Of a stretch of DNA of 64,000 nucleotides, positions 42,066 to 54,654 are shown piece by piece (the first letter of the stretch is position 1; each line of letters opens with the position of its first letter). The notes under the pieces were generated by a model. That model worked only from the letters and a program-made list of their open reading frames with translations. It ran no database searches and was not told where the DNA came from. The stretch lies in NCBI GenBank assembly GCA_050746205.1, contig JBOGKW010000001.1, forward strand, positions 203 to 64,202, read 5' to 3'. Source of the stretch: Terriglobales bacterium (GTDB lineage Bacteria; Acidobacteriota; Terriglobia; Terriglobales; SCQP01). The translations under genes and the position numbers were made by a program.

Positions 42066-42126
42066 GCGGGCAGGCGAGGACGCCATGCATCGGATGGCGG
42101 CGGGGCGGACGGAAAGGATCTCGGCA

Positions 42127-43320
42127 ATGGGCATGAGAACGCGAAATCGGCGGTGGAGTGGGGCGGGGCTGGCGGCAGGGCTGATGTTGGCGCTGGCGGC
42201 GCTGGCCGGCGGCTTGGGCGGATGCAGCGCGCACGGCGGCCACACAGTGCGAGCGGCGGAAGCCAGCCTGCCGCCGCTGGTGGCTACGGCGCCCGTGCGG
42301 CGGGAGCGGCCGCGGCTGAGCACCGACCTGCCAGCGGAGTTGGACCCGTATCAGGATGTGGTCCTGCGGGCGCGCGTGCCCGGGTTTGTGGCCCGTCTCT
42401 ACGCCGACCGCGGTACGCGGGTGCGGGCTGGACAACTGCTGGCGACGATTGAGGCGCCGGATCTGGTGGCCAAGGTGGGCCAAGCGGAGCAGCAGTTGAG
42501 CGCGGCGCGGGCGCAGCGGGCCGAGGCGCAGGCGGCGCTGGCCCGGGACCAGGCGACGCTGCAGCGGCTGAGCGGCGCGGCGCAGGCCATGCCCGGAGCG
42601 GTGGCCGGCAACGACATCACGGTGGCGCAGCAGACGGTGAAGATGGACGCGGCGCAGTCGCAGTCCCGCGCCGCGGCCGAGGCGGCGGCGCAAAAAGCCC
42701 TACAGTCGGTGACGGCGCTGGAGCAATACCTCCAGGTGCGGGCGCCGTTCTCCGGCATGGTGGTGACGCGCATGATCTCCGCGGGGGCGCTGGTGGGACC
42801 GGGAGGCGTGCCGATGTTCGAGGTCCAGCAGTTGGATCCCCTGCGGCTGACCGTGGATGTGCCGGAGGCCGAGGTGGGGGGCGCGGCGATCGGCGACCGC
42901 GTCGCCTTCACCGTCACTAGCGCACCGGGGCGCACGTTCACCGCGGTGGTGGCGCGCATCGCCCACAGCCTGTTGCCGCAGACCCGCACCATGCCGGTCG
43001 AGGCCGACGCCGCCAACCCGCAGTTGGTATTGGCGCCGGGGATGTTCGCCCGGGTGCTCTGGCCGGTGCAGCGGCGGCAGCCGACGTTGTATGTGCCGAC
43101 GACGGCGGTTCTGGACACCACGTTGGGCCAGAGCGTCGAGGTGGTACGCAACGGGAAAATCGCCATGGTGCCGGTGACAACGGGCTTCACCGACGGCGCG
43201 CAGATGGAGGTCTTCGGGCCACTGCAGCCGGGCGATCCGGTGGTCACGCCGGGGGACAAGACGCTGGCTGCGGGGTCGGCGGTGCGGGTCGCCGCCAGCG
43301 GCGCTGGCACCGGGTCGTAG
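42127..43320 (+). CDS. Efflux RND periplasmic adaptor subunit (lipoprotein)
   Basis: Lipobox LAGGLGGC and an adaptor hairpin (...EAPDLVAKVGQAEQQLSAARAQRAEAQAALARDQATLQRL...). The start is ambiguous (42085, 42094, 42127 or 42133). Confidence 0.85.
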   Translation: MGMRTRNRRWSGAGLAAGLMLALAALAGGLGGCSAHGGHTVRAAEASLPPLVATAPVRRERPRLSTDLPAELDPYQDVVLRARVPGFVARLYADRGTRVRAGQLLATIEAPDLVAKVGQAEQQLSAARAQRAEAQAALARDQATLQRLSGAAQAMPGAVAGNDITVAQQTVKMDAAQSQSRAAAEAAAQKALQSVTALEQYLQVRAPFSGMVVTRMISAGALVGPGGVPMFEVQQLDPLRLTVDVPEAEVGGAAIGDRVAFTVTSAPGRTFTAVVARIAHSLLPQTRTMPVEADAANPQLVLAPGMFARVLWPVQRRQPTLYVPTTAVLDTTLGQSVEVVRNGKIAMVPVTTGFTDGAQMEVFGPLQPGDPVVTPGDKTLAAGSAVRVAASGAGTGS

Positions 43321-45415: not shown

Positions 45416-46114
45416 GTGACTACGCCAAGGGCGCAGACCCGCGCCGATAGAAGCGCCGCCTTCCGGCAGGCTGTCAGGCTCTACAACAGCGGTGAACCCG
45501 CGAATTTCCGGAAGGGCTTCCTGCTCCTCCAGCGGGCCGCCGCGGCGGGGTCCATCGGTGCCCACGAGTGGCTGGGCGCCATGTACGATTACGGCCTTGG
45601 GACCCGTGCGAACCGGCCGAAGGCCTTCCAGCATTACATGATCGCTGCCAAGCGCGGCGATGCTAACGCCGAGTGCCATGTGGGCATTTTCTACGAGATG
45701 GGACGGGGCGTGAGGCGGAACTACCGTGAGTCCAGGCGATGGCTGGCGCTGGCGGCCAGGCAGGGCGACCGCGAGGCCATGCACGTGCTTGGGCGGCTAC
45801 ACCGGTTCGGGCAGGGGGTCCCGCGCAATCTCCAGAGCGGCTACCTGCTGCACCGGCGCGCGGCAAAAATGGGCTGCGCGGAGGCGCAATTTTCGACTAG
45901 AGTGTGCCTGAGCCGCGGCGAGGGCGTACGGGCCAATGCGCGGGCCGCGTTTTATTGGTACTTCCGGGCGGCGCGCCAGGGCCACGCCGACGCGGCGCAC
46001 AACTTGGGCTATTTCTACCGAGAGGGCAAAGGCGTGGCCAAGAATCCGCGCCGCGCCGAGGAGTGGTACGCGCGCGCGCGGCGGTTCGCCGGCGCCGAGC
46101 GTGCGAGGGAGTAG
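45416..46114 (+). CDS. Sel1-like repeat (SLR/TPR-family) protein
   Basis: Five or six repeats of the Sel1 pattern, for example AHEWLGAMYDYGLGTRANRPKAFQHYMIAAKRGDANA, ECHVGIFYEMGRGVRRNYRESRRWLALAARQGDREA and AHNLGYFYREGKGVAKNPRRAEEWY. Confidence 0.85.
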   Translation: MTTPRAQTRADRSAAFRQAVRLYNSGEPANFRKGFLLLQRAAAAGSIGAHEWLGAMYDYGLGTRANRPKAFQHYMIAAKRGDANAECHVGIFYEMGRGVRRNYRESRRWLALAARQGDREAMHVLGRLHRFGQGVPRNLQSGYLLHRRAAKMGCAEAQFSTRVCLSRGEGVRANARAAFYWYFRAARQGHADAAHNLGYFYREGKGVAKNPRRAEEWYARARRFAGAERARE

Positions 46115-46547: not shown

Positions 46548-47123
46548 ATGTGGCCGGAGCAGTGCCATTTCTGGGGGTTTGGGATGCGGAGGGGCAGGTT
46601 CAAGAATCTGGCGGAAGCGAACGAGGCGAATCTTCTTTACATGCGCGCCGAGGAGGCGTGGCGCGGGAATGACGTGCGTTCGGCCTTCCGACTCTTTCTG
46701 GCTTCCGCGAAGGCCGGCGTGGTGCCCGCTTTCCGGATTGTCGGCCAGTTCTACGCCAGGGGCGAGGGCATTGCAAGGAACGACAGGGCTGCACTCTATT
46801 GGTATCAACGGGCCGCCGATAACGGCGACGACTCGGCGGCAAATAACACCGGGTGTATCTGGCGGGATCGCGGCAATCTGGCGCGTGCGCTCCGGTGGTT
46901 CGAGCGGGCCGCGAAGCTGGGCGACGCGGACGCTAATTTGGAGATTGCCAAGGTCTACCTCCGCAAAAAGGATCCGGCGCGGGCGTGGCCGTATCTGGCC
47001 AGGGTGCGCAGGTCAGCTTGGGCCACCGAGCAATCGAAGGAGGAGGCGCGGGCCCTGGTAAATGCCATGGCCCAACCGCAGGCCACGCGGCCTCGCGCAT
47101 CTGGGCGGGCGAGGCGTGGCTGA
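46548..47123 (+). CDS. Sel1-like repeat protein
   Basis: Repeats include FRIVGQFYARGEGIARNDRAALYWYQRAADNGDDSA, ANNTGCIWRDRGNLARALRWFERAAKLGDADA and NLEIAKVYL. The start is uncertain (46548 or 46584). Confidence 0.8.
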   Translation: MWPEQCHFWGFGMRRGRFKNLAEANEANLLYMRAEEAWRGNDVRSAFRLFLASAKAGVVPAFRIVGQFYARGEGIARNDRAALYWYQRAADNGDDSAANNTGCIWRDRGNLARALRWFERAAKLGDADANLEIAKVYLRKKDPARAWPYLARVRRSAWATEQSKEEARALVNAMAQPQATRPRASGRARRG

Positions 47124-47278: not shown

Positions 47279-47623
47279 TTAGGCGAAGCTCTTGATGGCT
47301 TCGGCTTCGCTGGAGTACACGTCGAAGACGGTCAGCAGCTTGGTGATCTGGAGCAGCTCGTGAAAGCGCTTGGTGATGTTGGCCAGGCGGATCTTGGCAC
47401 CCTGCGCCTGCGCGGTGCTGTGCAAGCCGACCAGCGCGCCCAGGCCGCTGCTGTCGATAAAGTCCACCGACGCGAGGTTGAGGACGATTTTTTTGGCGCC
47501 GGAGGCCAGCAGTTCCTTCATGCGCTCGCGCAGGATGTTGGTTTCCTCGCCCAGGACGATGCGCCCGGCTGCTTCGACGACGGTGATGCCTTGTTCGTCG
47601 CGTTTGGTCAACTTTAGAGCCAC
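47279..47623 (-). CDS. STAS-domain anti-sigma-factor antagonist (SpoIIAA-like)
   Basis: 114 aa with ...KKIVLNLASVDFIDSSGLGALVGLH.... The GTG start is preceded by AAGGGAGA. Confidence 0.9.
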   Translation of the reverse strand: MALKLTKRDEQGITVVEAAGRIVLGEETNILRERMKELLASGAKKIVLNLASVDFIDSSGLGALVGLHSTAQAQGAKIRLANITKRFHELLQITKLLTVFDVYSSEAEAIKSFA

Positions 47624-47735
47624 AGATTTCTCCCTTCCGTCTAAGCCGGACGGCCAGCGGGGTCAAACTCTGGAATTGTAATGGCTCCGGGGGCCATTTG
47701 CAACCTGACGGCAGGCGGGGGTACGATTGCGCCCA

Positions 47736-48509
47736 ATGACCGCCGGTTTGCTCCTGGTGCTGATGCTGGCGCCCCTGCCGAGGGCCGCCGCACCCAACCA
47801 GCGGGCGGCGTTTTTGATCGCCGTGCGCCAGGCGTGGGTGGGGCGGCTGATGTTGCTGCGGGGATTCCCCGGGCAGAACCGCCTGAGCTACGGACCCAGC
47901 GGGCGGCCGCTCACGGCGGAGGGCAGCGGACCCTGGACGCTGGCGGAGGTTCGGGTTGGGGCGGTGGGGTGGCAGGGGGCTGACCTGTTGGCGACGGGCG
48001 AGCGCGACGGCCTGTTGGCGCGTGAGCACGCGTTCGTCCCGGTGAACTTGGGCGAGCCGGTCGAGTTGGTCATCCAGCTCGGGGCGGATGCACTCGATGT
48101 GGCCACGGTGAAGGAACTGACGGGTGAGATCTTCGTGGGAATGGAGGAGCTGCCGAAGGTGGTGCCCGTCTACTGGCGGCAGTTTGCCCACGGGACGGTA
48201 CCGCCGCCGCCCGGGCCAGTGAGCAGTTTGCGCGGAGCGGGGATTGAGCCGCCGGCGGCCCTGGCGACGCCGAAGCCGGCGTATCCGCCGGCGGCCAAGC
48301 GCGCGCGGCTGACCGGTAAGGTTGTACTCTCGATCTTCGTTGGGCCGGACGGACGGGCGCACGGCATCCAGATCGTGCAGGCGCTGGGGCTAGGGCTCGA
48401 TGACGCCGCCGTGCAGGCGGTAAGGCGCTGGCGCTTCCAGCCCGCGACGGTGGCGGGCCAGGCGGTTTGGGTGCGGGCGAATATTCGGGTCAACTTCCGC
48501 CTCTATTAG
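47736..48509 (+). CDS. TonB C-terminal-domain protein
   Basis: The C-terminus PKPAYPPAAKRARLTGKVVLSIFVGPDGRAHGIQIVQALGLGLDDAAVQAVRRWRFQPA is a TonB_C fold. There is an N-terminal signal or anchor. Confidence 0.8.
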   Translation: MTAGLLLVLMLAPLPRAAAPNQRAAFLIAVRQAWVGRLMLLRGFPGQNRLSYGPSGRPLTAEGSGPWTLAEVRVGAVGWQGADLLATGERDGLLAREHAFVPVNLGEPVELVIQLGADALDVATVKELTGEIFVGMEELPKVVPVYWRQFAHGTVPPPPGPVSSLRGAGIEPPAALATPKPAYPPAAKRARLTGKVVLSIFVGPDGRAHGIQIVQALGLGLDDAAVQAVRRWRFQPATVAGQAVWVRANIRVNFRLY

Positions 48510-48541
48510 CGGGGGAGGATTCGTCGTACTCTGGCCTATCC

Positions 48542-49378
48542 ATGGCAAGCGAAGTGGCAAGCGAAGCCGAGTTGCGGGAACAGATTCTGGCCATTGGCCG
48601 GATGCTGCATCAGCGGGAATACGTCGCCGCCAGCGACGGCAACATCTCCGTGCGGATGGCGGACGGGCGCATTCTGGCCACGCCGACCTCGATGAGCAAG
48701 GGGTTCATGAGCGCCGAGGATCTGGTTATCACGGACGCCGAGGGGCGGAAGCTGGAGGGTCGGCGCAATGCCTCCAGCGAACTGGCCATGCATCTGCTGA
48801 TCTACCGGTTGCGGCCGGAGATAGGTGGCGTGGTGCACGCCCATCCCCCGGCGGCGACGGGATACGCGGCGGCGGGCCTGCCGCTGAACCAGGCGCTGAT
48901 CAGCGAGGTGGTGCTGGCGCTGGGGTGCGTTCCACTTGCCGCGTATGGAACGCCGGGGACGCCGGAGTTGGGGGATGCGCTGCGGCCGCTGGTGCCGCAT
49001 TACGATGCCCTGCTGATGGCCAACCATGGCGTAGTGACGTATGCCGAGGACGGGCTGCGGGCCTATTTCAAGATGGAGACGGTGGAGCATTTCGCCCGCA
49101 TCTCGCTGGTGGCGCAGCTGCTGGGGAAGCAGGTGCTGCTGGGCAGCCGGGAAGTGGAGAAGCTGATGTCGGCGCGGCGGAAGTATGAGGGCATCAGCAC
49201 CGCCGCCGAACCGGCGCCGGGGTGTCCGGTCACCGCTGACGGGCCGCAGCGCGACTCCGCCCCGGCCTGCGCCCGCCCGGGCGAAGGCGGCGCGGCGGCG
49301 GAGCGGTTCCTGGTGACGCGGGAGGAGCTGACCCGATTGGTGGAACAAGCGGCGCGGAGCGGCAAGCGCCGCTGGTGA
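48542..49378 (+). CDS. Class II aldolase/adducin-family protein
   Basis: ...ASDGNISVR...SSELAMHLLIYRLRPEIGGVVHAHPPAATGYA...MANHGVVTY.... The ATG at 48542 gives MASEVASEAELREQ. Confidence 0.85.
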   Translation: MASEVASEAELREQILAIGRMLHQREYVAASDGNISVRMADGRILATPTSMSKGFMSAEDLVITDAEGRKLEGRRNASSELAMHLLIYRLRPEIGGVVHAHPPAATGYAAAGLPLNQALISEVVLALGCVPLAAYGTPGTPELGDALRPLVPHYDALLMANHGVVTYAEDGLRAYFKMETVEHFARISLVAQLLGKQVLLGSREVEKLMSARRKYEGISTAAEPAPGCPVTADGPQRDSAPACARPGEGGAAAERFLVTREELTRLVEQAARSGKRRW

Positions 49379-49428
49379 GCGCGTCGCCGCCCCGGAAGGC
49401 GACGGTACGCAAGGGCGGCAGGTGTTCT

Positions 49429-49523
49429 TGCTGCCGTAAGGCAGCCGTCTCGGTCGCCGGCAGGGAAACGGCTTCGTCGGAGATAGACAGGCGAGGACGC
49501 CTGTCCTACGGCAGACAGGGCCG
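49429..49523 (-). repeat. Intergenic array of GC-rich hairpin modules (REP-like), copy B, inverted relative to copy A
   Basis: The reverse complement contains an exact 20-mer ACAGGCGTCCTCGCCTGTCT shared with 43439-43458. It also has CCGAGACGGCTGCCTTACGGCAGCA (24 of 26 positions match copy A) and TCCGACGAAGCCGTTTC. Confidence 0.55.
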
Positions 49524-49541
49524 GCGGAGCCCGCGCTCGCT

Positions 49542-52532
49542 CTACTTGACCACCAGCGTCAGCGGCAGCGAGTGCACCAGCGCGCCGGCGGTGGCGGTAA
49601 TGGTGAGCGTGGTGGTTCCGGGCGGGGTGCTGGGCAGCGCCGGGGGATCGGCGGGGCGGCCGCCGCAAGCTGCTAGGGCCAAGGCCAGCGCCGCCAGCGC
49701 CAGCGCCCCGCCAAGGCGAGTGGCCCAGCGGCGCCGGCGGCTGATGGCGGCCAAGCCCAGCGAGAGCAGGCACGCGCACAACAGCCAAAGCAGGGACCGG
49801 GGCGGCTCACCCGATGGCCCCGGCGGCAGCGCGGCAGTGAGCCCAGGCGGGGTGGTCATGACCGAGACGGTGGTGGTTTGGCTGGCGCCGTTGAGGGTGA
49901 CCGTGGGCGGGGAGATGACGCAGGTGGCGGCTTTGGGGGCACCGCCGCAGCTGAGCCCGATGCTGCCGGTCCAGCCGTTGCTCGGAGCCAAATTGAGGGC
50001 ATAACTGGCGGTTTGGCCCGGGCTGACGCTGGCCGTCGGGCTGGCGGCGGCAAGGGAGAAGTCCGCGATGGCGATGGTGAGCGCGAGGGAATGGCTGTCG
50101 CCGCCGCTGCCGGCGAGGACGGTGATGGGCGCCTGACTGGCAGAAATCTGCGCGATGCCGCTGACGGTGAGCGTGGTATCGCCGCCGGCGCTGACCGAGG
50201 CGGGAGCGAAACCGCAGGCGAGCGGTGGCGCGGCCTGACAAGTAAAATTGATGGTCCCGCTGAAGCCGGCGATGCCGGCAGTGGCCAACTGGAACTGCGA
50301 CGCATTCGCGCCGCGGGTGACGGTCGTTTGGGGATGGGCCGCAAGGACGGAGAAATCCCAGGCGGTGGCGGTGAGGGTGGCCGAAGCGGTGGCGCCGTCG
50401 CTGGCGCTGCCGGTCACCGTGGCGGCGGTGACGGTTCCCGCCGGCAGGCTCGAGAGCGTGGCGGTGGCGGTCTGTCCCGGGGTGACGCTGGCGGGGCTCA
50501 GTTGGCAATTGGCCCCGCCGGGCGGCTGGCAGCTCAAGCTAATCAGACCGCTGAACCCGCCTTGCGCCGCCGCCGCGAGCGGAAACGCCGCGGATTGGCC
50601 GGCCATGACCGAGAGCGAGCCGGGCGTTGCCGCCAGGGTGAACCCCTGCGCGGTGATGGTCACGGTCGCGGTTTGGGTCACCGGGCCCTGCTGCGCGGCG
50701 ATGACGATGGTGTTGGCGCCGGCGGCCAGCGCCGCAGCGGCCACGGTGAGCGTAGCCGCGCCGCCGGGCGAGACCGAGGCCGGGGCGAACGAGCAGCCGG
50801 CGGCGGGAGCGCTGCAGGACAAGGCGATGGGGCCGGCCACACCGGTGGTGGCGACCTGGATGGTCGCGGGTTGGCCGAGGGCAACATCGCTATTCTGAGC
50901 GGAGGCGGTGACGGTGAACTGGCCGGGCAACAGGCCGTAGATGTCTAATTCTCCGCCGGCGGGCACGAACACTTCCCCGTCGGCGATGGCGGGAGCCACG
51001 AACTTCACCGCCGGCCCGGCCTGATCGCGGGCGCTATCCTGAGTGCTGTTATAGAGTTCCTGCAGGCTGCCGGCATCATAGGCGTGCAGCACCTCCGGTC
51101 CGCCGCTGGCCCAGGCTTGGGCTTCAATGAGCCACACGATGCCGTCGCTATTGCCGTTGGCGGAGATCATCGGCACGCCAGCGGGAAAGTCGAACCAGGT
51201 GCTGGAGGTGGCGACGGGGGCGGCGCTCAACAGATCGTCGTTGACGGCAAAGGCCTGCAGCGGACCGCCGAGACCACTGTCGCCACCGGTGCCGACCTGA
51301 TACCATTCGCCGTTCCAATAGGCGGGCGTGCCGAAGACTCCGGCGCTGGCGCCGGCTTCCTCTTCCGGGATCTGGGTGTCCGGCCCGGGGCCCTCAACGT
51401 AGCCGCCGAGGTCATTGGGGTTAAGGACATAGAGATCGCCCGCTTTGTTGCCGGCGACCGCCACGCCGGCGGGCTGGCTGGAGGAGGGGGGCAACAGGAC
51501 CACGCCTTGGGAAGAAAGGTCGGCGTTGGTGGCGGAGAGTTGGTTGACATCCCAGGGCGCGAAGTAATCGCTGGCAACGAGTTGGCCGTCGCTGTTCGCC
51601 AGCCGGATGATGCTTTCGCCCAGGTCACCGGTGCTGGGAGAGAAGCCGAGATTGCCGCTGGCGACATAGACATTGCCGCTGGCGTCGGCGGCCGGCGCGC
51701 CGCCCCACAGGCCGCCGCCTTCGCCGTTGGGCGTGGCGACATAGGTGGCCGCCGGCTGCAAGGTGGCGGCGTTGAAGGCCATCAGCCAGCCGTGATACGG
51801 CTGATAGTCGCAGTGCGAGCCCCAGGCCACGTAGACCAAGCCTTGGGAAAGGAGCAGGCCGGGGCGCTGCAGTGCGGTCAGGGGATTGAAGCTCAGTTGG
51901 CCATTGGCGGAGCCCACACCGGTGCCGGGGACGGTGGCGGAGATGACCGCCGGGCCGCCGAACTTCTCCGCGCCCGTGGCCACGGCCAGAGCGTGCAGGC
52001 GCTGCACGGGCTGGCCGTTCTCCATGGTCGCGGCGACCACGTAGAGGGTGCCGGTGGAGGTGTCAATGACCGGCGTGCCGGTGATGCCGATCAGCGGCTG
52101 GAGGTCTTGGCAATGGGCTTCGTTGGAGGTCTGGGTCAAAATGCCCTGGCTGGGGTCGGTGAAATGGTCCACCCACACAGGCGTGGCCCCTTGGCCGTTG
52201 CTGGCCCCTTGCGCGTCGAAGGCGTAGACGCTGTCGTTTTCCGTGACCACGAAGACCAAGTTGCGGGTTTGCCCGGCGGGCAACGTCACATTGGGCAGAT
52301 AGAGCGGCTGGGCATAGATGTCCGCATCCACCGGCGCGCGGAGCAACAGGCCAAACTGCTGGCTGTTGACATTGGCCGGCGTCAGCTGCGTTTCCGCGGT
52401 GTTGGCGCCGGTGCGGGCGTTGTTGTTGTGGTAGGTCCAGACGGTGGTCTGCGCCGACAGGGCAAGGGCGAGGAGCAGGACCGCCGGCAGGCTGCGGAGG
52501 ACGGCGGTGAGAGCACGGCAACACAAGCGCAT
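49542..52532 (-). CDS. Large surface protein: PQQ-like beta-propeller plus four Ig-like repeats, the last one interrupted by a TM hairpin
   Basis: The ATG at 52532 gives the signal peptide MRLCCRALTAVLRSLPAVLLLALALSAQ. Next come a propeller region (TVWTYHNNNARTGAN...VFVVTENDSVYAFDA...) and four ~95-aa repeats that start F(T/S)(V/L)xA. The C-terminal segment has two hydrophobic helices. Confidence 0.8.
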   Translation of the reverse strand: MRLCCRALTAVLRSLPAVLLLALALSAQTTVWTYHNNNARTGANTAETQLTPANVNSQQFGLLLRAPVDADIYAQPLYLPNVTLPAGQTRNLVFVVTENDSVYAFDAQGASNGQGATPVWVDHFTDPSQGILTQTSNEAHCQDLQPLIGITGTPVIDTSTGTLYVVAATMENGQPVQRLHALAVATGAEKFGGPAVISATVPGTGVGSANGQLSFNPLTALQRPGLLLSQGLVYVAWGSHCDYQPYHGWLMAFNAATLQPAATYVATPNGEGGGLWGGAPAADASGNVYVASGNLGFSPSTGDLGESIIRLANSDGQLVASDYFAPWDVNQLSATNADLSSQGVVLLPPSSSQPAGVAVAGNKAGDLYVLNPNDLGGYVEGPGPDTQIPEEEAGASAGVFGTPAYWNGEWYQVGTGGDSGLGGPLQAFAVNDDLLSAAPVATSSTWFDFPAGVPMISANGNSDGIVWLIEAQAWASGGPEVLHAYDAGSLQELYNSTQDSARDQAGPAVKFVAPAIADGEVFVPAGGELDIYGLLPGQFTVTASAQNSDVALGQPATIQVATTGVAGPIALSCSAPAAGCSFAPASVSPGGAATLTVAAAALAAGANTIVIAAQQGPVTQTATVTITAQGFTLAATPGSLSVMAGQSAAFPLAAAAQGGFSGLISLSCQPPGGANCQLSPASVTPGQTATATLSSLPAGTVTAATVTGSASDGATASATLTATAWDFSVLAAHPQTTVTRGANASQFQLATAGIAGFSGTINFTCQAAPPLACGFAPASVSAGGDTTLTVSGIAQISASQAPITVLAGSGGDSHSLALTIAIADFSLAAASPTASVSPGQTASYALNLAPSNGWTGSIGLSCGGAPKAATCVISPPTVTLNGASQTTTVSVMTTPPGLTAALPPGPSGEPPRSLLWLLCACLLSLGLAAISRRRRWATRLGGALALAALALALAACGGRPADPPALPSTPPGTTTLTITATAGALVHSLPLTLVVK

Positions 52533-52883
52533 GGTTTTGCGCGGGCGGGTCCCGCAACTCTGCGATGGCGGATCGGGACCGCACCGTTGCCCAGGGGCGC
52601 GGAACCCAGGCGGCCCACGCCCAATGCGGGCCACGATCGCAGCCCTGGCGGCAGACGTGCCCGGGCTAGTCGCGGCAACCTGGAGGGGTCCCGAGCACCA
52701 GCCGGCGTCGGTTGTCGGCTGTCCCACCTCCACATGCGCCGCTGCATGCCGGGGACCGCTTCGAAGCCCAGCCGCAGGCCCGGCTGGCGCCGGGGTCCCC
52801 AGCGGGAACGGTGCGTGCTTGTGTGGAGCGGTGCGGCGTGGGGTGGGGCGACGGGGCCGTCTAGGATCGGGCGGCTGAGCCGC

Positions 52884-53711
52884 CTAGAGGTCTCGCTGGC
52901 TGAAATGGCGTAGCGCGAGCGCCAGCGCCACCAGCAGATAGGCGACAGCGTACAGCACCATCGCGCCGCTGGGCACCGAGGCGGTGGCAAATGGCGTAAA
53001 GCGCAGCGCGCCCGGCAGCGGCGAGCGGAGCGCGAAACTGGCGCGGCGCCACAGGGCTTCACTGGGGCAGATCAAGCTAGTGATGATGCCCAACCGCACG
53101 GTGGCGGGATGGTGCAGGATGGCCCCAATTTGCTCGACCCAGCCGCCGATAAACGCCAGCCCGTACAGCCCCAGGGCCAGCACGCCGCTGGCCAGCGCCG
53201 AGCAAACGGTAGCAAACAGCAAGGTGACGGTCAGGAGTACGAGGGACTCCAACCAAATGAGCAGCGCGGCCACGGCCAGATGCGGCGCGTGATAGCCGCC
53301 CCGGCCCTGCGCGACGACGTACGCCGCGACGGCGCACATCACGCCGACATAGACGGCGAGCAAGGCGGCGAAGCCCAGCCATTTGCCCCACAACAATTGC
53401 CAGCGCGGCATGGGCTTGGTGGCCAGGGTTTGAATGGTGCCGCTGCCGATTTCGCCCGCCACGGTCTCCAAGGAGGCCACAATGGCCAGCAGGGCGGAGA
53501 GAAACGCCACGCCGTAAAGGGCGAGCTGAAAGAGGCCCGCCCAGATCTCCGCCCGAATGAGTGGCGACGGCGGGCGGCGGCCGCGGAATTGCAATGCCAC
53601 GCCGAGGGCAAAGACGCTGAGATAGCCCGCGCTAAGCAAAAGTACCGCTAGCAGCACCTTGCGGCGGGCCGCCTCGCGCCAGGTAATAGCGGCGATGAGC
53701 GCGACTCTCAT
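52884..53711 (-). CDS. ABC-2-type transporter permease
   Basis: The ATG at 53711 gives MRVALIAAITWREAARRKVLLAVLLLSAGYL. The protein has six predicted TM segments and lies 19 nt downstream of the ATPase gene. Confidence 0.75.
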   Translation of the reverse strand: MRVALIAAITWREAARRKVLLAVLLLSAGYLSVFALGVALQFRGRRPPSPLIRAEIWAGLFQLALYGVAFLSALLAIVASLETVAGEIGSGTIQTLATKPMPRWQLLWGKWLGFAALLAVYVGVMCAVAAYVVAQGRGGYHAPHLAVAALLIWLESLVLLTVTLLFATVCSALASGVLALGLYGLAFIGGWVEQIGAILHHPATVRLGIITSLICPSEALWRRASFALRSPLPGALRFTPFATASVPSGAMVLYAVAYLLVALALALRHFSQRDL

Positions 53712-53730
53712 ACTGCCGCCGGACGGCGTC

Positions 53731-54654
53731 TCATGCTCCAGCCTCGCGGCCCACGATGGCCATAAACGCCTCCTCCAGCGTGGCGCGGCGCGGCGTGAAG
53801 GCGTAGAGGGCCGCGCCCTGGGTGACCAAATAATGGACGATGGCGGGCAGGTCGGCTTCGCGGCGCGCCTCCAGCTGCAGGTCTTCGCCGGTCCAGGCCA
53901 GCACCTGGGCCCAAGGTGCCAGGCCGGCGACGGTGTCGGCCCGCAGCCCGCGCGCCCGGGCCGCGACGGCGACGCCGGCCTCGGGCGCCTGCGGCGCGCC
54001 CGCGACCAAGGCACGCACCGCCCGCACCTCGCCATCGCGGAGAAAGGCGACGCGGTCGCAGGTGGTCTCGACCTCGCCCAATAGATGGGAGTTCAAGAAA
54101 ACCGCGGCGCCGCGCTGGCGCTGCTCACGCAGGATCTCGCGGACCAAAAGGCGGCCGCCGGGGTCCAGGCCGGACGTGGGCTCATCCAGAAAGACCAGTT
54201 CCGGATCATGCAGCAGGGCTTGCGCCAAGCCCAGCCGCTGGCGCATGCCCTTGGAAAATTCACCGAGCCGCTGCCGCGCCTGCGCCGCCAGCCCGACCCG
54301 GTCGAGCCAATGCGCCGCGCGGGCGCGGGCGGCGGGGCGGTCTAATCCGGCCAGGCGCGCGTGGAATTGCAGCAACTCCGCCGCAGTCAGCCATTCGTAA
54401 AAGCGGAAATGCTCGGGGAGAAAGCCAATGCGGGCGCGGCAGGCGACGTCGCCCAACGGGTGGCCCAGGACGGTGGCCGCGCCACCGGTGGGGCGCACCA
54501 AGCCCAGCAGCATCTTGACGGAGGTGCTTTTGCCGGCGCCATTGGGCCCGAGAAAGCCGAAGATCTCCCCGGGCGCGATCTCAAGCGTCAAGTTGGCGAC
54601 GGCCAGCTTGGGGCCGAAGAACTTGTACAGCCCGGCGGCCTGGATGACGGCCAT
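53731..54654 (-). CDS. ABC transporter ATP-binding protein (ABC-2/DrrA type)
   Basis: Walker A GPNGAGKST, the signature region FSKGMRQRLGLAQAL and Walker B LVFLDEPTSGLD. Confidence 0.95.
   Translation of the reverse strand: MAVIQAAGLYKFFGPKLAVANLTLEIAPGEIFGFLGPNGAGKSTSVKMLLGLVRPTGGAATVLGHPLGDVACRARIGFLPEHFRFYEWLTAAELLQFHARLAGLDRPAARARAAHWLDRVGLAAQARQRLGEFSKGMRQRLGLAQALLHDPELVFLDEPTSGLDPGGRLLVREILREQRQRGAAVFLNSHLLGEVETTCDRVAFLRDGEVRAVRALVAGAPQAPEAGVAVAARARGLRADTVAGLAPWAQVLAWTGEDLQLEARREADLPAIVHYLVTQGAALYAFTPRRATLEEAFMAIVGREAGA

Follow-up and report, generated by a model that had tools for sequence, protein, structure and literature searches.

The final immunoglobulin-like (Ig-like) copy of a 996-residue protein, encoded in a 64,000-nucleotide stretch of DNA (hereafter the window) from a Terriglobales metagenome-assembled genome (MAG), carries, within one of its surface loops, a hairpin of two helices joined by a basic loop that splits the copy in two, and the segment that follows a cysteine just past the second helix, Cys956, is the missing end of that same copy. 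This tail belongs to a family that is already curated and named, with a putative function, and the window protein is a new member of it. The best overall explanation, to which we give a probability of about 0.7, is that the tail is a C-terminal anchor of the kind called lipo-invert, in which a look-alike of a lipoprotein signal placed at the end of the protein would tie it to the membrane. An initial annotation of the window had noticed the interrupted copy at positions 49542-50060 (-), which are the final 172 codons and the stop codon of the gene; that observation is confirmed, and the interpretation then attached to it is partly supported.

The interruption can be followed with a 96-position hidden Markov model (HMM) made from 35 uninterrupted Ig-like copies of proteins that lack the tail. 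In the window protein this profile finds three whole copies: copy 1 at residues 539-627 (50652..50918 (-); positions 1-95, E 4.3e-9), copy 2 at residues 631-721 (50370..50642 (-); positions 1-93, E 6.5e-12), and copy 3 at residues 727-822 (50067..50354 (-); positions 1-96, E 4.5e-13). The fourth is matched in two pieces, with a first part of seven strands at residues 825-897 (49842..50060 (-); positions 1-73, E 1.8e-13) and a final piece at residues 968-995 (positions 69-96, E 1.1e-7). The two pieces meet at profile positions 69-73, and the split falls at the same place in all ten of the other tail proteins tested with this profile of uninterrupted copies. In the consensus of those copies, …TLTVTTSSSTPAGTYTLTITGTSGSLTHS…, the insert site is the loop that precedes TPxGTY. 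Since copy 4 matches as 825-897 plus 968-995, the insert amounts to about 70 residues (898-967), close to the 73 that had been proposed together with the four repeats and the split in the last of them.

Structure prediction gives the same picture. AlphaFold2 (AF2), run on the last 172 residues with a 26-sequence alignment, returned a model with an overall predicted local distance difference test (pLDDT) score of 83, in which seven strands are followed by two helices (912-932 and 938-955) and two further strands (972-982 and 985-995). The strands of the first part have block-mean pLDDT values of 90-96, and two 10-residue blocks over the last two strands average 96. HMM and model thus agree on a terminal beta-hairpin (residues 972-996; 49545..49619 (-)) made of the last two strands of copy 4. 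When the tail model was submitted to Foldseek, it matched Ig-like sandwiches, namely a sialidase linker domain, the Fn3-like domain of cucumisin, SbsC and PapD-like/HYDIN domains, and these alignments to solved Ig-like domains span the insert, because they cover about 172 columns. Both the two-helix hairpin and the completion of the fold by the terminal strand pair had been anticipated from the sequence, and we hold this topology, with completion of the fold, to be highly probable.

Pfam has no significant match to the 996-residue protein. NCBIfam release 20 (June 2026) includes a model for the tail, NF058595.1 ('invert_tail', 'lipo-invert putative C-terminal anchoring domain-containing protein'), so that the statement in the initial annotation that no functional description was known has been overtaken. 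The match runs from residue 885 to the C-terminal residue 996 (49545..49880 (-)), takes in all 113 model positions (1-113), and scores 75.6 bits (E 3.7e-21), twice the curated cutoff of 37. Because the full model is matched above its cutoff, we regard membership in the curated family as practically certain; the window tail shares with the family the full-length match and the extreme C-terminal position, and no tested feature sets it apart. The model is also matched by 25 of the 26 homologues, and 17 of the 26 carry choice-of-anchor D, a domain named after surface proteins ending in alternative anchor signals. One tail homologue additionally matches NF058597 ('choice-of-anchor Z repeating domain'), whose accession adjoins NF058595; curation of the two may have been a joint effort.

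The family is large and concentrated in one phylum. A tail profile searched against 1.84 billion representative proteins matched 5008 representatives at E<=1e-3 and 211 at E<=1e-10, and of the 150 representatives listed, nearly all align to the full length of the profile, with the match at the extreme C-terminus. Among the top representative clusters, 141 of 147 have a hydrophobic stretch followed by [LWMVI][ASTV][AGS]-Cys, then GG in 134 of these 141, with 36-49 residues after the Cys; four of the six exceptions are repeat proteins without the tail and two carry the motif outside our filters. At the level of genomes, a DNA pattern for CGGG…GTPxGTY found at least 119 loci. All 119 loci fetched encode the same tail architecture, at the extreme C-terminus of the protein in almost every case, and 79 of the 80 record titles shown are from Acidobacteriota, mostly Terriglobia, with two loci in several MAGs. 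The recurrence in Acidobacteria, which the initial annotation had suggested, is therefore borne out. The lone title from elsewhere is a 'Gammaproteobacteria bacterium' MAG (L038, 91-152 (+)) with the tail at the edge of a 10-kb contig, which could be a case of misbinning or a rare occurrence outside Acidobacteriota. Three sequences (L039, L007 and P0165) continue beyond the point where the tail normally stops: 57-76 residues follow the Cys, or a long extension of unrelated sequence is present, which suggests frameshifts or read-through in those assemblies.

The insert itself reads as an ordered series of elements. It opens with a Pro-rich linker (residues 898-912, LTAALPPGPSGEPPR; 49797..49841 (-)), poorly conserved beyond its richness in Pro (PP occurs in 94 of 152 tails). 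Helix 1 (residues 913-931, SLLWLLCACLLSLGLAAIS; 49740..49796 (-)), which AF2 extends to 912-932, has an uncharged length with a median of 19 across 268 tails of the family and is probably a stop-transfer helix running from the periplasm to the cytoplasm. The basic loop RRRRWATR (residues 932-939; 49716..49739 (-)) is the probable cytoplasmic part: in the same 268 tails such loops have medians of 8 residues, 4 K/R and 0 D/E, a charge distribution compatible with cytoplasmic placement, and Arg932 (R108 of the 172-residue query) is nearly invariant among the 26 homologues. Helix 2 (residues 940-955, LGGALALAALALALAA; 49668..49715 (-); AF2 helix 938-955) resembles the h-region of a signal peptide and ends in L-A-A, and the distance from the last K/R to the Cys, all of it uncharged, has a family median of 18 residues. 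Then come Cys956 (49665..49667 (-)) and a Gly/Pro-rich tether (residues 957-971, GGRPADPPALPSTPP; 49620..49664 (-)) to which AF2 gives no secondary structure; across the 268 tails, the 20 residues past the Cys are almost free of charge.

Conservation singles out the cysteine. Cys956, in LAAC-GG, is the sole invariant column of the 26-homologue alignment, and the other two Cys of the Ig-like copy are missing in several of these homologues. We defined a lipobox as [LVI][ASTVI][GAS]-C with a preceding uncharged h-region and a basic n-region, and the window protein has all of these in order (RRRRWATR-LGGALALAALALA-LAA-C); the classical lipobox pattern (after PROSITE PS00013) fits 138 of 152 tails. 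The resemblance of the second half of the insert to a lipoprotein signal, which had been mentioned as an aside, thus deserved more weight than it received, and the reading of helix 2 as a lipoprotein-signal look-alike is strongly supported by these sequence patterns. The tail resembles bacterial lipoprotein signals of the Sec/SPII type in its basic n-region, in an h-region that runs for about 16-18 residues without a charge, in L-A-A-C and in the Gly-rich tether after it. In those signals the Cys lies at about residue 20 (within roughly the first 15-35), whereas the window tail is internal, with its Cys at 956 of 996; and, unlike them, its lipobox comes after a probable stop-transfer helix and has just 40 residues beyond it. 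N-terminal lipoprotein candidates were too few for a comparison of lipoboxes, two in the window (one of them convincing) and 16 across the loci (several doubtful). The convincing one, at window position 42127 (+) in the open reading frame (ORF) 42085-43320, has the signal MGMRTRNRRWSGAGLAAGLMLALAALAGGLGG-CSAHGG.

Taken together, these features suggest that the tail is probably a C-terminal membrane-anchoring module, still putative, of exported Terriglobia proteins, and we lean towards the prediction that Cys956 is lipidated. The best-surviving alternative is a plain helical hairpin that anchors one unlipidated chain in the inner membrane, its Cys being kept for helix capping, metal binding or a disulfide. 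Two hydrophobic helices and a basic loop suffice to anchor a protein, and our literature searches found no data on lipidation. What is conserved, however, is an exact lipobox, whose -1 and -2 residues are small and which Gly-Gly usually follows, rather than the helices, and the Cys of the lipobox is lost in no homologue whereas the other two are lost in several. Moreover, one helix would do. In three related proteins (P0035, P0042 and P0045) the Ig-like copy is complete and uninterrupted, and after it come one hydrophobic helix and a basic tail, a simpler, alternative way to anchor a domain of this kind. Since a single helix suffices there, the return of the chain to the outside in the invert_tail proteins needs a reason; returning outside and ending within the fold would make sense if the lipobox faces outward and the piece after it stays attached. 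We therefore find the plain hairpin unlikely.

A second alternative takes helix 1 and the Arg cluster as a sorting signal, of the same kind as PEP-CTERM, GlyGly-CTERM or MYXO-CTERM, that is cut by an exosortase, a rhombosortase or a CPBP-type enzyme, the lipobox being secondary. Known C-terminal sorting tails (PEP-CTERM with exosortase, GlyGly-CTERM with rhombosortase, MYXO-CTERM, and PGF-CTERM with archaeosortase) are likewise found at the end of large exported proteins whose passengers vary, and the invert_tail recalls them both in general shape (a motif region, then a helix, then a basic cluster) and in its presence on many proteins with diverse passengers that include choice-of-anchor D proteins. 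Unlike them, the tail has no signature motif ahead of helix 1 and matches no model of their kind, and its basic cluster, far from closing the protein, leads on to another helix, to a lipobox and to a segment that folds. The PEP-CTERM resemblance raised in the initial annotation does not hold: the EPP of the window protein is not conserved, PEP occurs in 1 of 152 tails, richness in Pro is all that is shared ahead of helix 1, and neither PEP-CTERM nor any other sorting-tail model of NCBIfam matched at E<=1. No sortase-like neighbour was seen across the 119 loci, in a search confined to gene neighbourhoods. We consider a sorting signal very unlikely. As for an artefact or one-off fossil, in which loss of a stop codon would have run a protein ending in a helix into the signal peptide of a small lipoprotein encoded downstream, the order of the elements does resemble a tail followed by a signal peptide and an ancient fusion is conceivable as the distant origin of the family, but as a description of the window gene it is refuted by an identical tail in a second assembly, by the 5008 representative clusters and at least 119 loci that carry the tail in frame and nearly always terminally, and by a segment after the Cys that is the missing end of an Ig-like copy and not a separate protein.

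How the lipo-invert anchor might work can be proposed from the established Sec and Lgt/LspA/Lnt pathways. The N-terminal signal peptide would take the propeller that forms the N-terminal passenger and the Ig-like copies across the inner membrane until helix 1 stops the transfer, the Arg cluster being kept in the cytoplasm in line with the positive-inside rule. Helix 2 would then re-insert as a lipoprotein-type h-region and expose Cys956 on the outer side of the inner membrane, where Lgt could add diacylglycerol to this predicted site. LspA would probably cut between Ala955 and Cys956, after which Lnt would acylate the new N-terminus. The remaining 41 residues would be a lipidated beta-hairpin that completes the Ig-like sandwich, so that the C-terminal end of the passenger is tied to a lipid. 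When the neighbouring ORFs of the 119 loci were compared all against all, no partner gene proved to be conserved (the biggest cluster spans nine loci), and the lack of a conserved neighbour fits the use of housekeeping Lgt, LspA and Lnt.

Cleavage into two chains held together by strand complementation is a tentative part of this scheme, to which we give somewhat less than even odds. If LspA cuts, an Ig-like sandwich would receive its last strands from a short peptide that is no longer part of its chain, by analogy with the donor-strand complementation of chaperone-usher pili and with the split CnaB2 domain of SpyTag/SpyCatcher; PapD-like chaperone domains are among the Foldseek matches to the tail model. 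Unlike in these systems, one gene would give both pieces, the proposed donor would be a two-strand lipopeptide, and no isopeptide-forming residues are conserved.

Several points weigh against a lipidated anchor. First, the classical lipoprotein pathway is defined on N-terminal signals, and the use of a lipobox at residue 956 is assumed. Second, literature searches on lipo-invert, invert_tail and NF058595, on internal or C-terminal lipoboxes, and on lipobox hairpins of Acidobacteria returned nothing relevant. Third, a passenger cut by LspA would keep helix 1, the loop and helix 2, and the lipid would be redundant unless a second cut took the hairpin away; the lipid might then serve as an extra anchor, or such a cut might take place, and no conserved cleavage motif was found ahead of helix 1 in 152 tails. 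Fourth, the packing of the last strands was judged indirectly, by pLDDT, by the span of the Foldseek alignments and by the split of the profile. Fifth, our search for a natural 'split gene' version, a stand-alone small lipoprotein made of a signal peptide and a beta-hairpin, showed none: its short matches (82-167 residues) retain helix 1 in full or in part and appear to be fragments. A more radical version, a self-splitting anchor in which LspA cuts at Cys956, the 41-residue triacylated hairpin stays locked in the sandwich and a second cut in the Pro-rich linker frees the passenger, is speculative and in our judgement doubtful. If true, it would be a non-covalent C-terminal lipid anchor that Lol could transport to the outer membrane or the cell surface, and a mode of anchoring surface proteins for which we found no experimentally described precedent.

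Terriglobia are among the most abundant soil bacteria and, to our knowledge, the anchoring of their many large exported proteins is essentially unstudied. The module is present on thousands of protein clusters with varied passengers. If its lipobox is used, a lipoprotein machinery specific to N-termini would have been turned to anchoring the C-terminal end of proteins, and the tail would be a natural split Ig-like domain held together by a lipopeptide. It is mechanistically unusual, yet it represents an already curated family rather than a new discovery.

Ahead of the Ig-like copies, the window protein consists of a signal peptide and a passenger. Its N-terminal Sec-type signal peptide (residues 1-27; 52452..52532 (-)) has an h-region score of 2.78, a probable cleavage site after LLLALALSA and before QTT, and no lipobox; Sec signals of the same kind are found at the N-terminus of most plausibly full-length members of the tail family. 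The passenger proper (residues 28-538; 50919..52451 (-)) is a pyrrolo-quinoline quinone (PQQ)-like beta-propeller with eight blades according to AF2 (pLDDT 86, predicted template modelling score 0.90) and Foldseek, the best matches of which are quinoprotein alcohol and methanol dehydrogenases, BamB and tetrathionate hydrolase, with E down to 1e-14 and, for the solved quinoprotein enzymes, an identity of just 9-16%. By sequence it has no match in Pfam or the PDB. It has at least 8000 homologues, a few of which are named 'pyrrolo-quinoline quinone' by NCBI, and most members of this passenger family are stand-alone proteins of about 530 residues with no Pfam domain on record. In some relatives (within P0198-P0316), other C-terminal modules take the place of the tail, among them SLH (PF00395), FG-GAP/VCBS and chitobiase C-terminal domains.

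The whole gene (49542..52532 (-)), as read from the ORF list and its translation, has 996 codons and a stop codon (49542-49544), and the window contains this one tail only. The protein, which begins MRLCCRALT, is a 100% match to NCBI MGH9533264.1 from a Terriglobales MAG, a 'hypothetical protein' that can now be named an invert_tail protein with a PQQ-like propeller passenger. The second NCBI assembly encodes a version that differs by substitutions at three residues (744, 745 and 748) but has an unchanged tail, and because the tail is identical there we exclude an assembly artefact. The longest ORF reaches a GTG at 52733 (-), 67 codons upstream (52533-52733) of the ATG at 52532; we took the ATG as the start, because it yields a typical signal peptide and the deposited protein uses the same start. 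Weak matches to DUF4131, DUF5980, LptM and choice-of-anchor T fell below cutoff and were dismissed as compositional, that to LptM lying on the lipobox region. Two ORFs that overlap the gene, 49375-50004 (+) and 49063-49788 (-), have no support and were taken as spurious, as is common in G+C-rich DNA.

Directly upstream, on the same strand as the tail gene, lie an ABC-2 family permease (52884-54035 (-)) and an ABC ATPase (53731-54654 (-)), which may form an operon with it (52884-54654). On the downstream side are two Sel1-repeat proteins (45416-46114 (+) and 46548-47123 (+)), a STAS-domain protein (47279-47623 (-)), a protein with a TonB C-terminal domain (47727-48509 (+)) and a class II aldolase (48467-49378 (+)) that is convergent with the tail gene.

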